Source: Candidatus Poribacteria bacterium (GTDB lineage: Bacteria > Poribacteria > WGA-4E > WGA-3G). From it: DNA of 64,000 nucleotides. The translations under genes and the position numbers were made by a program. Below, piece after piece: positions 27,503 to 34,225 of this stretch. A model generated the notes under the pieces. The model was not told the DNA's origin. It did no database searches and worked only from the letters and a program-made list of their open reading frames with translations. The stretch is taken from contig CAXXUA010000004.1 of assembly GCA_963663765.2 (NCBI GenBank), forward strand, positions 576,001 to 640,000, given 5' to 3'. The first letter of the stretch is position 1, and each line of letters opens with the position of its first letter.

Positions 27503-28636
27503 ATGAAAAAAAAACACCTTTTTACCCCCGGTCCAACTCCAATTCCACCAGATGCCTATTTGGCAATGGTACAACCGATTGACTACCACCGCAGTGAAGA
27601 GAGTGTTGCTTTAATTAAAGACATCTTAGAAAAACTCAAACATGTATTTCAAACGGAGAATGATGTTCTTTTTCTGACATCCTCTGGCACTGGGGCGATG
27701 GAGGGTGCTGTTGCCAATCTGCTATGTCGTGGTGACAAGGCTTTAGTTATTCGGAGTGGTAAGTTTGGTGAACGGTGGGCAGAAATCTGCACGGCGTATG
27801 GGGTTGAGGTCGTTCCTATTGATGTGACCTATGGTGATTCAGTTGCACCAGAAGTCGTAGCAGAAAAGCTGACTACTAACTCTGATGTAACAGCAGTTTT
27901 TGCAACACTTTGCGAAACATCTACAGGTGCATTGCACGACATTGAAGCGATAGCAGGCATAACGAGAGACAGTCCAGTACTTCTTGTCGTTGATGCGGTT
28001 AGTGCACTCGGTGCAGACGATTTGCAGATGGACAGTTGGGGTGTAGATGTTGTTGTGTCCTGCTCACAAAAAGGATTGATGACTCCTCCGGGACTCGCTT
28101 TTGCTGCACTGAACTCTCGCGCTTGGGATGCAACAGAACGATCCGATCTTCCAAAATACTACCTCGACTACCGCAAGGCACATCAGCGCGGGTTAGAAGG
28201 GTCAGCACCATACACACCAGCAGTTACACTACTTGCAGGATTACAATTCGCACTCAATCATATCTGTGCGGAAGGTATCCGAAATACCATCTCGCGTCAT
28301 GCCCGAATGGCATCTGCTACGCGAAATGCCATCAAAGCCATCGGTCTACCGTTGTTTGCAACATCTCCTGCGAATACGTTAACCTCCATCCGTTTGCCCG
28401 AAGAAATTGATGGTAAAGCGTTTGTTAAGATGATGCGAGATAATCATGGCATCACTTATGCAGGCGGACAGGGGAATTTGAGTGGAAAGATTGTCCGTAT
28501 TGCACATCTCGGCTGGATGAACGAATACGATGTTATTGTTGCTATCTCTGCTTTTGAGAGAGGGATTGCAGAAATCGGATACGATGTACAACTCGGAGCG
28601 GGTGTTACAGCTGCACAAGAGGTTTTTTTAACCTAA
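27503..28636 (+). CDS. Class V PLP aminotransferase (serine-pyruvate/alanine-glyoxylate type)
   Basis: TPGPT, SSGTGAME, VDAVS, SQKGLMTPPG, RIAHLG. Confidence 0.93.
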   Translation: MKKKHLFTPGPTPIPPDAYLAMVQPIDYHRSEESVALIKDILEKLKHVFQTENDVLFLTSSGTGAMEGAVANLLCRGDKALVIRSGKFGERWAEICTAYGVEVVPIDVTYGDSVAPEVVAEKLTTNSDVTAVFATLCETSTGALHDIEAIAGITRDSPVLLVVDAVSALGADDLQMDSWGVDVVVSCSQKGLMTPPGLAFAALNSRAWDATERSDLPKYYLDYRKAHQRGLEGSAPYTPAVTLLAGLQFALNHICAEGIRNTISRHARMASATRNAIKAIGLPLFATSPANTLTSIRLPEEIDGKAFVKMMRDNHGITYAGGQGNLSGKIVRIAHLGWMNEYDVIVAISAFERGIAEIGYDVQLGAGVTAAQEVFLT

Positions 28637-28652
28637 GTATTGACAGAAAAGT

Positions 28653-29482
28653 AGGGTTATTCAGTTTTAAGAATCTATCGTTATGCCAGTTAATTTTGGG
28701 TTAAGATTAACGACTTGTGCCAGTTAACCCATTGTTTTCAAAGTTTTTACATATATTAGGTTTATAATGCATACATATCGTCCCTACGGGACTAAAGAGG
28801 ATGTACTATGCCGTTTTTCTATAAACATATCGTCCCTACGGGACTGAAGATCGTTTCAAACTATGAAGGACACCTGCAAAACACCATGCTTATGTGAAAC
28901 AATGATTAACATATAGTTATTTAGCACAACTCGTTAAATTACTAATTGGTAAAATTGGTAATTTTTTCTTCGGAAAAACCCAGTCATAGACAAGATTTGT
29001 GTACAGAAAAAATTACCAATTGCCTGAAAGTAGCGACTTGTACTAAATAACTATTTATTAAAAATTACTTCACATAGACAAGTGGATTTAACCGTCCTTC
29101 TTTTGCTTTGGATGATCTTTAGTCCCGTAGGGACGAAATGTTATATACCATACCCAATATATGTGAATTTAGTATAAACATTTAGTTAACTGGCACAAGT
29201 CGTAAGATTAGTAATTATATAGGATTTTTGTGGTATTCTTGATTTTGGTCTGAACTAGGATTTTCAGGATGAGTAGATTATCAAGATATTACTCATCAGA
29301 TCCTAATCCAAAAGAGAGCATAAACACATATCAAAAACCCTTGACGAGGTAAATCCTGCTAATCTGGTAATCCTGAAAATCCTGGTTCAGAAAAAGAATG
29401 GATTAACTCACAAGAATAAGCTCACTCAAGGATTAACAACTTTGATAGAATTTACTCAATAAATTGAAAACTGAATAACCCT
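28653..29482. mobile_element. Nested MITE cluster: outer element with AGGGTTATTCAGTTTT TIRs containing a composite ACGACTTGTGCC-type MITE (28710-29203) and other palindromes
   Basis: Outer TIR pair, with a partial copy at ~31720-31800; inner composite flanked by AAGATTA on both sides; 21/22-bp inverted repeat at ~29249-29391. Confidence 0.75.
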
Positions 29483-29568
29483 GTCCTATTGATTTAGGAG
29501 TTGTTTTTTTCTGATGAATTCTGATACAATAATAAGATAAGTTGAACATCAGAAAAAACAATTCTTTT

Positions 29569-30312
29569 TTCTATTTCATTTAGGGGATTGACAACCCCCT
29601 AATACTTATCAATATTGTATCATATATTGTACAGGACTTACGCAGTTTTCTTGATTTAATCAAAAATTATGATGAAAATGATGCCATTATCAGCGTTTTT
29701 ATGGGTTTCCGGCGCGCTTACAAAGCACGCCTACCGTTGGGTGCGTAAGTCCTGTTTCTAATTCATTTAGGGATTGACAACCCCCTAATACTTATCAATA
29801 TTGTATCATATATTGTACAGGACTTACGCAGTTTTCTTGATTTAATCAAAAATTATGATGAAAATGATGCCATTATCAGCGTTTTTATGGGTTTCCGGCG
29901 CGCTTACAAAGCACGCCTACCGTTGGGTGCGTAAGTCTTGTTTCTAATTCATTTAGGGATTGACAACCCCCTAATACTTATCAATATTGTTTCATATATT
30001 GTACAGGACTTACGCAGTTTTCTTGATTTAATCAAAAATTATGATGAAAATGATGCCATTATCAGCGTTTTTATGGGTTTCCGGCGCGCTTACAAAGCAC
30101 GCCTACCGTTGGGTGCGTAAGTCCTGTTTCTAATTCATTTAGTGATTGACAACCCCCTAATACTTATCAATATTGTTTCATATATTGTACAGGACTTACG
30201 CAGTTTTCTTGATTTAATCATAAACTATGACGAAAATGATGCCATTATCAGCGTTTTTATGGGTTTCCGGCGCGCTTACAAAGCACGCCTACCGTTGGGT
30301 GCGTAAGTCCTG
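29569..30312. repeat. Four tandem 186-bp units, each 63 bp of flank plus a complete 123-bp CAGGACTTACGCA MITE
   Basis: TIR starts at 29632, 29818, 30004 and 30190; TSD TTGTA. Confidence 0.92.
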
Positions 30313-30426
30313 TTGTAATTAAGACAAGCAATAAATCCATTCTATGTATAGGCTTATAGCAGTTTTATTGAATCCCAAAACAACTAATTCCCAAGCTAAA
30401 TAACTCTGACCAGATATGTTTTCTTA

Positions 30427-30455
30427 TTGACATTCAATAAAAAACATGTTAACAT
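30427..30455 (+). promoter_or_regulatory. sigma70 promoter of the candidate selenoprotein gene
   Basis: TTGACA-N17-TAACAT with extended -10 TG; palindrome ATGTTAACAT overlaps the -10. Confidence 0.65.
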
Positions 30456-30538
30456 TTATACAAAATTAAGAACAAATTTGACTTATACCTAACTAAAATA
30501 CATTGTAGGTAAAAACTAATATTCGTGAGGATTTAACA

Positions 30539-31594
30539 ATGAAAAATCTACTTACAGCAATACTTGTTATACAGTTCGTTTTCATTTCTCTCGGTTTCGC
30601 ACAAGAGAGCTGAGGTGCGTGAAGCAACCCCACAATCCCACTCAGTGGGGGAGATGAAGTTAGTTTAACTTCAGAGCAAAAGAGATTTCAAATTACATTT
30701 GGCACACGAACTTTTAATGCCCATGGTGGACACGATGAAGTTAATGGTATATCGGCATTTGGTGAACCACCAGAACCTGTTGCTGCACACCGTCATGAAG
30801 TTGAGATGAATGTAGTGCGCTTTGAAATCGGATTAAAATACAAAATAAACAAGAATTGGCAACTGGAAACTATAGTTCCTTATGAGATAAAAGACCAGAA
30901 TGCTAATGTAAGTGGACTTGAAAACATTGATGATTCTGAAATGCACAGGAAAATACTACTCTATCAAAATATTCATCATCGGGATGAAACCTATCAAGGT
31001 ATCTCGGATATGGATCTATTGATGTCTTATCACAAGCATGGTCTTCTGATGAAAAATGATATGTTAACCGCGAAATTTGGATCAACAATACCGGTTGGAA
31101 AAACAGAAAAAGACCCATGGAAACTTGGTGATATGGGGATGGAACATCTCCATCTTCAATTCGGCACTGGGACATTTAATCCCATCGCAGACCTGCGTTA
31201 CTCCTTTCCAGTATATGCTGGATTGTCTGTAAATGCAGGTGTTCGCAGTAAGGTGCCTTTCTATGAAAACAGTAAGACATATCTCGGCTCATGGGAAGTT
31301 ACCTATACTGGTGGATTGAGATATAAAGTCGTAGACTGGCTTTCAGTACAGTCAAGTTTTCTTGGACTATATCAATCCTTTGCACATTGGGATGGAGAAA
31401 TTGACATCAATACAGGATTGCAGTTTAGTATGGCTTCTTTGGGAGCATCTTTCTCAACTCCTTACAATGTCCCTTTGACTATTACATTGATGTTGCCAAT
31501 ACAACAAGAAACCCTTTACGAAGACTCGCAGAATGGCAGTGATGCTTTCAAATTGAGTATGTTAGTTTCTCTAACTGCGTTGTATTCCTTTTGA
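30539..31594 (+). CDS. Putative outer-membrane beta-barrel transporter, candidate selenoprotein with UxxU motif (351 aa by readthrough)
   Basis: GAGG RBS, ATG 30539, signal peptide MKNLLTAILVIQFVFISLGFA, then QES-TGA-GA-TGA-SNPT; the frame continues without another stop into the 30806 ORF; LQFGTG motif and C-terminal YSF. Confidence 0.75.
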
Positions 31595-31936
31595 TCTTAG
31601 CTCCAAGATAGAATTTGACACAAATATTGTGAGTCGTAATTCATCGTAAAAGAGTTCATAGACAAGTGTTTTTCTGCTCAGTTCCTCGCTTCATTTAGAA
31701 TGATACCAACTCCTTCCCCCAGGGTTATTCAGTTTTCAATTTATTGAGTAAATTCTATCACAGTCGTTAATTCTTGAGTTTGCTTATTTTTGGGGTTAAC
31801 TTATTCTTTGTTTGAAAAACCTGGTTTCGACATAAATAATAACTTTGCACACGCATACAGTTTAGGTTGAAAACCGTGAATTATTCTGATAAAATTATAT
31901 AGAAACATCAGAACTTCTTATAACAAAAGAGGCGAT

Positions 31937-34140: not shown

Positions 34141-34225
34141 TGCCGGAGGTCGGACTCGAACCGACATGGACCTAGGGCCCGCTGGATTTTGAGTCCAGTG
34201 CGTCTACCAATTTCACCACTCCGGC
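34141..34225 (-). tRNA. tRNA-Leu (CAA)
   Basis: Reverse complement GCCGGAGTGGTGAAATTGGTAGACGCACTGGACTCAAAATCCAGCGGGCC...GTTCGAGTCCGACCTCCGGCA, long variable arm. Confidence 0.96.

Follow-up and report, generated by a model that had tools for sequence, protein, structure and literature searches.

Introduction

In Table 1 of a 2026 catalogue, which covers 119 selenoprotein families, the outer membrane is represented by the GSU2204/MtrB-PioB family and the FCYXU TonB receptor, and UxxU spacing of two selenocysteines (Sec, U in motifs) by a Prx-like protein, the HMA-type NF041115 and an FmdB-family protein (PMC13188914). The mercury- and copper-related selenoproteins catalogued in the same work (MerT-like C/SxxU, YHS GxU, MerB-like and HgcA/B) provide a precedent for Sec in the handling of these metals (PMC13188914). 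Here we describe a gene at positions 30539-31594 of a 64,000-nucleotide stretch of Candidatus Poribacteria bacterium DNA (assembly GCA_963663765.2, contig CAXXUA010000004.1, positions 576,001 to 640,000 of the forward strand; hereafter the window). Judging from the sequence and its relatives, this is very probably a real gene for an exported beta-barrel with two Sec residues, P0001.

Results

Two in-frame UGA codons in one reading frame

The locus has the following features.

30427..30455, plus strand: promoter-like site TTGACA-17 nt-TAACAT with a TG before the -10 hexamer, 10/12 consensus matches
30527..30530, plus strand: Shine-Dalgarno-like GAGG, 8 nt before the ATG, seen in the sequence
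30539..31594, plus strand: full coding sequence of 351 codons and a terminal TGA, two UGA codons inside it being predicted to encode Sec
30539..30601, plus strand: signal peptide, residues 1-21, putative cleavage after LGFA placed by inspection
30611..30613, plus strand: UGA, predicted Sec25, first of the pair, in frame at codon 25
30620..30622, plus strand: UGA, predicted Sec28, second of the pair, in frame at codon 28

By direct reading, the frame starts at ATG 30539-30541, meets TGA at codons 25 and 28 as its only stops before 30806, and closes at TGA 31592-31594. The table-11 start used by gene callers is ATG 30806, which opens a 262-aa open reading frame (ORF) that begins MNVVRFEIG and lacks a signal peptide. 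An earlier reading of this DNA, made from its letters alone (the sequence-only reading), had noted that lack and extended the frame upstream to 30539; we find the same in the sequence, together with the ATG at 30539, the TGAs at 30611 and 30620, the ribosome-binding site, the promoter-like site, the translation and the YSF end that it had named. With TGA read as U, the product consists of MKNLLTAILVIQFVFISLGFA up to the predicted cleavage site, followed by QESUGAUSNPTIPLSGG..., and its C-terminal end is ...LYSF. The predicted signal peptide, with a basic N-terminus, a hydrophobic core and an A-x-A-like end, is found in 50/50 aligned relatives and is modelled by AlphaFold2 as a helix at residues 2-19. 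The sigma-70-like TTGACA-TAACAT site alone is weak evidence, since the region holds nine promoter-like sites where shuffled sequence would give 6.3.

Conservation of both UGAs and their alignment with cysteine

A six-frame search of 61 genomes, the window's own and 60 relatives, found the gene in 54, at identities as low as 33%. By family, it was present in 36/36 for f1, 9/9 for f2, 1/8 for f3 and 7/7 for f4. Among the 90 matches listed, 86 carry two in-frame TGAs and three carry one; the single match that has none is a C-terminal fragment. Conservation to this degree goes well past anything that chance would give. Genomes of the genus hold two paralogues each, about 52% identical and both with two TGAs. 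The second paralogue of the window's genome, also with the motif UGAU, lies on another contig (G000:C5:450667-451737, plus strand; 52% identical), between an aldo-keto reductase gene and a conserved gene for a 146-aa membrane protein, an arrangement that recurs in genome G003. Genome G021, one of the genus, carries a third copy in two pieces (C1:1198170-1198771, minus strand), one matching residues 6-112 with two TGAs and the other residues 261-351, which is probably a decayed copy.

An alignment of 50 sequences (30 orthologues and 20 paralogues or members of other families) shows the motif Q-[E/D]-x-[U/C]-x-A-U-S-N-P straight after the signal peptide in all 50. The codon at site 1 is TGA in 47 and Cys (TGT or TGC) in three, and site 2 is TGA in 50/50. 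The terminal stop of these genes varies (TAA 22, TAG 17, TGA 11), which argues that the third TGA of the window's frame is a true stop.

All 120 database homologues among the matches listed (262-321 aa) start downstream of the TGAs and cover at most 88% of the query. An exhaustive HMMER search recovered 378 relatives. Those called through the N-terminus show CPACSNP, CAGCRNP, CAACSNP, CPACQNP, CAACGNP, CPGCSNP or CSGCTNP at the aligned site, and C-x-x-C-x-N-P is present in 12 full-length distant proteins. Two database entries have W at the TGA sites, P0204 (DSWGAWSNP) and P0179 (DACSLWSNP); this is most simply explained by translation under a table in which TGA is Trp, a mis-annotation trap for Sec genes.

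The combinations of Sec and Cys were tallied over 79 loci from named genomes, 77 of which have a recognisable motif (L090 and L091 were left out): 39 are CxxU, 23 UxxU, 15 CxxC and none UxxC. Site 2 is TGA in all 62 Sec-form loci and Cys only in the CxxC forms, while site 1 is Cys in both the CxxC forms and a clade with the motif CPAU. The CxxU forms belong to a Poribacteria paralogue clade, and CxxC is seen in Bacteroidota and in more distant forms. Across a 17-row alignment reaching down to 23% identity, C/U25, C/U28, N30, P31, H65, H86, H146, H147, R148, H203 and H205 are invariant. A tree of 131 rows groups the Poribacteria forms in one clade of 102 (61 UxxU and 41 CxxU, support 100), where the CxxU rows fall into one clade of 37 with the CPAU motif and four separate single rows; as the tree comes from a quick search and was midpoint-rooted for drawing only, we draw no direction of Sec/Cys change from it.

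The genome encodes selenocysteine machinery and the extension is under purifying selection

Genes for Sec synthesis and insertion score above curated cut-offs in the window's genome: selA (545 bits), tRNA-Sec (selC, 78.5 bits), selB (361.6 bits, beside tRNA-Sec) and selD, which carries one in-frame TGA. TGA closes 457 of 2438 long frames genome-wide (19%), which rules out global recoding of this codon. Within the window, a tRNA-like match at 34142-34225 (minus strand) scores 39.5 bits to the tRNA-Sec model, under the gathering score, and is probably an ordinary long-arm tRNA.

Over codons 1-89, the ratio of nonsynonymous to synonymous substitution rates (dN/dS; Nei-Gojobori, 23 orthologues of the same length) is 0.120, from 233 usable pairs. 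It is 0.110 when only codons 22-89 are taken, and codons 90-351 give 0.078. In an RNA library of a related strain, one contig of 239 nt spans 30568-30806 with both TGAs intact and differs at five sites, four of them synonymous in the barrel frame and the fifth causing I71L. It is a weak hint only, because DNA can be present in such libraries, and the contigs span parts of the gene only, gaps such as 30400-30567 and 30807-30986 being uninformative.

These results bear out several expectations of the sequence-only reading: homologues have Cys or TGA at codons 25 and 28, with Cys seen at both positions and no other genuine residue; the extension is under purifying selection (dN/dS 0.12 over codons 1-89); and selA, selB, selC and selD are all in the genome. 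The recent pseudogene that it had raised as a refutation is ruled out by that dN/dS and by the conservation of both TGAs across relatives (86 of the 90 matches listed).

An uncatalogued family of predicted outer-membrane barrels

Two features are defined by the model of P0001 and by the alignment of its relatives.

30686..31591, plus strand: predicted 12-stranded beta-barrel domain, residues about 50-351 (AlphaFold2), with an aromatic Y-S-F end
30731..31153, plus strand: span of a histidine cluster, H65, H84, H86, H146-H147-R148, H203 and H205, invariant in a 46-sequence alignment

The AlphaFold2 model, built on the 46-row alignment, has a mean predicted local distance difference test score (pLDDT) of 78.5, a predicted template modelling score of 0.77 and 12 long strands at residues 50-350. 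Its top structural matches are all outer-membrane barrels. VIA-align places first 4rl8_A (Z 25.1, root-mean-square deviation 2.7 Å over 251 residues) and 5o65_A, the channel FapF (Z 24.3), with autotransporter barrels at Z 17-20 and PcoB at Z 11.9; Foldseek returns FapF at E 5e-12 and 4rl8 at E 4.8e-10. The model thus supports an exported 12-stranded outer-membrane beta-barrel, as the sequence-only reading had proposed.

Outer-membrane barrels of this type usually have periplasmic termini and their long loops outside. On this topology, H65 (end of strand 1), H84 and H86 (start of strand 2), H146-H147-R148, and H203 and H205 (long third loop, in the motif HLH-[IL]-QFGTGT) would lie at outer strand ends and loops, and the Sec pair would sit on an arm of about 25 residues at the periplasmic end.

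P0001 matches no Pfam family, its nearest being a TonB barrel below threshold (E 0.0078, 16.5 bits against a cut-off of 27), and no NCBIfam release 20 family at E<=1, NF041115, NF041027 and NF049945 included; two of its relatives gave only chance-level NCBIfam matches to unrelated models. Such a barrel is missing from the 119 families of Table 1 in the 2026 catalogue (PMC13188914), and full-text searches of literature other than subscription journals and supplements, on UxxU, outer-membrane selenoproteins, Sec in Poribacteria and mer in Bacteroidetes, returned no description of it. P0001 belongs to a family that is in none of these catalogues and is marked by the N-terminal motif C/U-x-x-C/U-x-N-P together with the invariant histidines, in agreement with the sequence-only reading, which did not recognise a described family.

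Relatives of the barrel lie among and are fused to metal-handling domains

Neighbours were counted by tblastn in those of the 77 loci that have 3 kb or more of sequence on each side, 61 in all (10 CxxC, 32 CxxU and 19 UxxU). An HMA-thioredoxin protein is a neighbour in 9/10 CxxC, 0/32 CxxU and 1/19 UxxU loci, the last being the Acidobacteriota UPAU locus L109. The corresponding counts for the three classes are 6/10, 0/32 and 0/19 for MerT-HMA, 2/10, 0/32 and 0/19 for MerA, and 5/10, 0/32 and 0/19 for a heavy-metal P-type ATPase. A different set accompanies the CxxU forms: a YHS-domain protein and a TolC-like OEP (each 0/10, 24/32 and 0/19), and a small Cys-rich protein of 146 aa (0/10, 30/32 and 0/19).

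The Cys forms of Bacteroidota have an exported HMA-thioredoxin fusion gene immediately upstream in 7/8 annotated loci, and around their barrels lie genes for ArsR-type regulators, MerT-HMA, HMA, MerA-type reductases with an N-terminal HMA domain, or heavy-metal P-type ATPases. The CPAU paralogue is preceded by the small Cys-rich protein and followed by the YHS-domain protein and TolC-like OEPs; in one genome this operon extends to a CusB-like protein that bears HMBD domains and to an RND pump (ACR_tran, E 7e-209) into which an HMBD is inserted. Longer relatives carry additional domains after the barrel: HMA in P0135, thioredoxin in six proteins, and thioredoxin with a cupredoxin-like domain in P0214, P0229 and, weakly, P0197. 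The linkers between the barrel and the added domain are rich in His and Asp.

Three independent lines, namely the fusions, the contexts of the Cys forms and the CPAU operon, link the whole family to soft metals. For the window's gene, a metal role rests on the family-wide motif and histidine cluster and not on its own context, because its genome has no close HMA-thioredoxin or MerT protein and no CPAU paralogue (a six-frame search gave two family matches only). It is therefore not a component of a mer operon by context, whereas the Cys forms of Bacteroidota do lie in mer-type operons. The sequence-only reading had suggested metal or selenium uptake: its metal-binding part gains support from the contexts and fusions of relatives, and selenium uptake gains none.

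Several neighbouring genes are worth recording. The small exported Cys-rich protein whose gene directly precedes the CPAU paralogue (about 146 aa; L115:6138-6575 and relatives) has CxxxC and CC motifs and matches no Pfam family. A homologue is encoded in the window's genome (C13:472533-472901, minus strand; 32% identity), and a comparable Cys-rich ORF of 134 aa precedes the barrel in an f4 genome (L075:7512-7913). Directly upstream of the UxxU barrel and in the same orientation, the f4 loci L077 (6558-7968) and L078 carry a BlaI/BlaR1-like pair, a Penicillinase_R repressor and an M56 sensor-protease, which in L078 was assigned by gene sizes only; the pair may be a dedicated regulator. Within the window, a class-V aminotransferase gene (27503-28636, plus strand; Aminotran_5, E 5e-23) lies 1.9 kb upstream of the barrel gene; this fold family takes in cysteine desulfurases and selenocysteine lyases. 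The intervening 1.9-kb stretch (28637-30538) is AT-rich and contains, just upstream of the promoter region, a 186-nt unit repeated in tandem 4.0 times (29568-30314, 98% matching), outside of which it has no ORF of at least 50 aa.

Conserved RNA hairpins follow the UGAs

Two hairpins lie just downstream of the UGA pair.

30628..30650, plus strand: proximal hairpin, candidate Sec insertion sequence (SECIS), with two alternative 5' arms and one 3' arm
30655..30673, plus strand: distal hairpin UGAAGUUA-GUU-UAACUUCA, 8 bp, loop GUU

The outer register of the proximal hairpin uses the 5' arm CCCCAC (30628-30633, N-P codons) and the inner register UCCCAC (30636-30641, I-P codons), 8 nt apart; the 3' arm GUGGGG (30645-30650) is common to both. 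The inner-register loop, UCA, is 28 nt past the first UGA and 19 nt past the second, and the distal loop 49 and 40 nt, respectively. Folding energies in the window are -10.7 kcal/mol for the outer register, -7.1 for the inner and -6.3 for the distal hairpin.

The same fold, a proximal hairpin followed by a distal one of 7-8 bp, is present in 50/50 sequences of the alignment. Paired cells there amount to 86.3% for the outer register (slid controls 34-61%; 23 double-change cells), 89.3% for the inner register (36-68%; 19) and 92.5% for the distal helix (25-48%; 36). For each of the three helices, the percentage paired, the covariation score and the number of double-change cells all lay beyond what any of 500 shuffles gave; the two measures based on counting pairs or pair types did not stand out.

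We compared the classes over 120 distinct sequences (65 UxxU, 41 CxxU and 14 CxxC). The distal hairpin, scored as at least 6 bp with a loop of 3-5 nt containing GU or GG, occurs in 62/65 UxxU, 41/41 CxxU and 0/14 CxxC sequences. Pairing of the N-P arm is found in 49/65, 3/41 and 2/14, and that of the I-P arm in 62/65, 39/41 and 8/14, respectively. Against synonymous randomisation, the mean z values were -1.7, -1.3 and -1.2 for UxxU, -2.7, -3.1 and -1.7 for CxxU, and -0.9, -0.8 and -0.4 for CxxC, so that structures of the Sec forms are more stable than their synonymous-codon randomisations, with moderate z-scores. The three classes behave as a SECIS role predicts, with the contrast between CxxU and UxxU coming mainly from one clade and therefore counting as about one evolutionary event, and the Cys forms being those of another phylum.

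A model of bacterial SECIS (bSECIS) elements sets four criteria, a loop of 3-9 nt, a distance of 16-37 nt from the UGA, a G in loop positions 1-2 and a minimum free energy (MFE) of at most -7.5 kcal/mol, and some real elements do not fit it (PMC13188914). Among UxxU sequences, the inner proximal hairpin has the loop size in 65/65, the distance in 65/65 from the first UGA and 63/65 from the second, the loop G in 30/65 and the MFE in 49/65. Several observations speak against a SECIS role here. All four criteria hold for the inner proximal hairpin in only 19/65 UxxU sequences, and in 17/41 CxxU sequences, and no single hairpin of the window passes all four: the inner one has no G in its UCA loop and reaches -7.1 kcal/mol, the outer register has an 11-nt loop, and the distal hairpin, although its G-U loop is canonical, folds at -6.3 kcal/mol and is 40 and 49 nt away from the UGAs. 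The fold of 30605-30670 as a single sequence is unremarkable (z -0.45), so the support for RNA structure comes from the comparative analysis only. A scan of 28500-31700 with Rfam (E<=5) gave chance-level snoRNA and sRNA matches and no SECIS family.

The simplest reading is that one proximal SECIS, 28 and 19 nt away, serves both UGAs. A more elaborate and doubtful possibility is a composite SECIS that changes register to serve two UGAs 9 nt apart. The G-rich 3' arm would first pair with the C-rich N-P codons, which start 14 nt past the first UGA; as the ribosome advances three codons and melts this arm, the 3' arm would pair again with the near-identical I-P codons 8 nt on. These begin 13-14 nt past the second UGA, and the geometry to the invariant distal GUU-loop hairpin, the presumed SelB site, would be restored. 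If this is true, the strictly conserved peptide S-N-P-x-I-P-x-x-G would be set by the RNA and not by protein function, and no earlier description of a mechanism for tandem Sec insertion in bacteria would precede this one.

A pair of hairpins is seen in selD of the same genome (G000:C2:220603-221529, minus strand), whose own TGA lies in C-A-G-U-A-S-K: two successive hairpins follow its UGA, a proximal one with a G-rich loop about 16 nt past it and a second stable one.

Discussion

Taken as a whole, the locus is probably best explained as a gene for a two-Sec outer-membrane barrel of a soft-metal-handling family. The signal peptide would export the protein, and the mature N-terminus would form a flexible arm starting Q-E-S-Sec-G-A-Sec-S-N-P, with the conserved mRNA hairpins just downstream helping to decode both UGAs as Sec. 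The likeliest role of the family is the capture or passage of soft metal ions (Hg(II), Cu(I), Ag(I)) at the outer membrane; the analogy with its metal-linked members inclines us slightly towards such a role for P0001. Metal would be bound by the Cys/Sec pair of the arm and by the histidines, placed close to the outer mouth or constriction, and would be passed between the outside and periplasmic partners, and selenolates in place of thiolates could give tighter, oxidation-tolerant binding. Selenium insertion, metal specificity, the direction of transport, the position of the histidine cluster and the mechanism of the arm are the parts of this explanation that we infer.

A number of observations count against this explanation. 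The functional argument comes from relatives and not from the window's gene, with a metal neighbour in 1/19 UxxU loci (Acidobacteriota) and none in the 18 Poribacteria UxxU loci, whose contexts are not conserved. The genes around the barrel in the window are unrelated ones: a GFO/IDH/MocA oxidoreductase, the class-V aminotransferase, HflX, an AP-endonuclease-like TIM barrel and an M24 peptidase. The counts of metal contexts come from related genomes and are not independent. Searching the window's genome by tblastn with HMA-thioredoxin, MerT-HMA, YHS and MerA queries gave no close partner, and its MerA-like matches, at 29-32% identity, are probably ordinary flavoprotein disulfide reductases. 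As for the structure, the N-terminal arm is modelled at pLDDT below 50 at residues 15-28 and 37-45, the location of the histidine cluster is deduced from general barrel topology and not from coordinates, and the nearest solved folds (COG4313 and FapF) belong to channels for hydrophobic molecules or polypeptides and not for metals.

The pair could instead be a redox centre, making the protein an outer-membrane thiol/selenol oxidoreductase or a redox-gated channel in which a diselenide/diselenol cycles with a periplasmic thioredoxin as reductant and a substrate such as a disulfide, selenite/tellurite or peroxide. CxxC, CxxU and UxxU are classic redox motifs of most catalogued selenoproteins (PMC13188914), and the commonest fusion or neighbour of the barrel is a thioredoxin domain with a WCxPC motif. 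We nevertheless consider this unlikely: the thioredoxin partner almost always comes with an HMA domain (in 9/10 Cys-form loci), genes further around are of the mer, Cus, P-type ATPase and YHS kinds, and metal binding is indicated by seven histidines that never vary and by linkers rich in His and Asp. The redox and metal readings are not exclusive, as thioredoxin may keep the pair reduced for metal binding.

Less probable still is a channel of the COG4313 or FapF type for non-metal cargo, hydrophobic molecules or peptides, with the arm as a plug and the Cys/Sec pair as its latch; the metal neighbourhoods of other phyla would then be a specialisation that the orphan Poribacteria UxxU copies do not share. 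Both best structural matches are 12-stranded channels of this kind (Z 25.1 and 24.3), some database relatives have precomputed PF13557 matches (2 of the 120 listed), and metal genes are missing around the window's gene and around the rest of the Poribacteria UxxU loci. P0001, however, falls below every Pfam threshold, two costly selenocysteines are hard to explain for a passive latch, and neither the motif nor the histidine cluster varies between the mer-linked Cys forms and the Sec forms of Poribacteria, a constancy that speaks for a single chemistry common to both.

Finally, that the extension is not translated with Sec, the product being the 262-aa ORF from ATG 30806 behind a non-coding stretch or the relic of a pseudogene, or the UGAs being read as another residue such as Trp or Cys, would agree with the uniform choice of starts 3' of the TGAs by gene callers, with the W residues of P0204 and P0179 and with the lack of a window hairpin that fits the full bSECIS model, but is very improbable given that such a 262-aa product would have no signal peptide or first barrel strands, that dN/dS is 0.12 over codons 1-89, that paralogues and other families retain the TGAs at identities as low as 33%, with Cys the only residue aligned to them, and that the genome has complete Sec machinery and ends 19% of its long frames with TGA.

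A two-Sec outer-membrane barrel linked to soft metals would have several implications. It adds to the prokaryotic selenoproteome a widespread family that gene callers systematically truncate, and a small outer-membrane channel-type protein with a two-selenocysteine arm. The series of CxxC, CxxU and UxxU forms within one family, never UxxC, is a natural experiment on where and why Sec replaces Cys, and bears on how one mRNA element can direct two adjacent Sec insertions. As Poribacteria are symbionts of sponges and uncultured, envelope proteins that depend on selenium are relevant to their trace-element ecology. To our knowledge, the standard mer model does not cover how Hg(II) crosses the outer membrane to MerP/MerT; if the metal reading is true, the family would provide a dedicated outer-membrane step for mercury and copper handling.

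Among described proteins, the best structural match is the COG4313 channel Pput2725 of Pseudomonas putida F1 (PDB 4RL8, PF13557 Phenol_MetA_deg), likewise a 12-stranded barrel. Its identity to P0001 is only 12%, and P0001 has no PF13557 match at E<=0.01. COG4313 proteins are thought to pass hydrophobic molecules, and we know of none with an N-terminal CxxC/UxxU-x-NP arm or an invariant histidine cluster. FapF, the amyloid-subunit secretion channel of Pseudomonas (PDB 5O65), also has 12 strands and an N-terminal element tied to its pore, but it is 12% identical to P0001, transports a polypeptide and has neither a Cys/Sec pair nor a metal context. PcoB (PDB 7PGE) is a small outer-membrane copper barrel that matches the P0001 model weakly (Z 11.9) and lacks a CxxC arm.

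Among selenoproteins, eukaryotic selenoprotein L shares the UxxU spacing of P0001; it has a thioredoxin fold and a SECIS in its 3'-UTR. NF041115, a UxxU HMA-type selenoprotein, has two Sec in place of a soft-metal CxxC and is a precedent for two UGAs 9 nt apart (PMC13188914). Like the other mercury- and copper-related selenoproteins, it is soluble or in the inner membrane and has another fold than P0001. The GSU2204/MtrB-PioB barrel (NF041027) and the FCYXU TonB receptor (NF049945) are, like P0001, Sec-containing outer-membrane beta-barrels (PMC13188914), but are much larger, with a single Sec and different motifs. The sequence-only reading had also cited a Sec-containing porin, ExtI of Geobacter; the account of this cluster in the portion of PMC5877670 relevant here proposes the cytochrome ExtKL, and not the porin, as the selenoprotein.

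We know of no dedicated outer-membrane component in the textbook mer system. A 2021 mer survey, in the sections drawn on here, names the outer membrane only in a figure legend and gives no outer-membrane mer component (PMC8261052). The MerP-MerT relay passes soft metals between paired Cys sites, and the Cys-form barrels of this family share operons with MerT-HMA, HMA and MerA.

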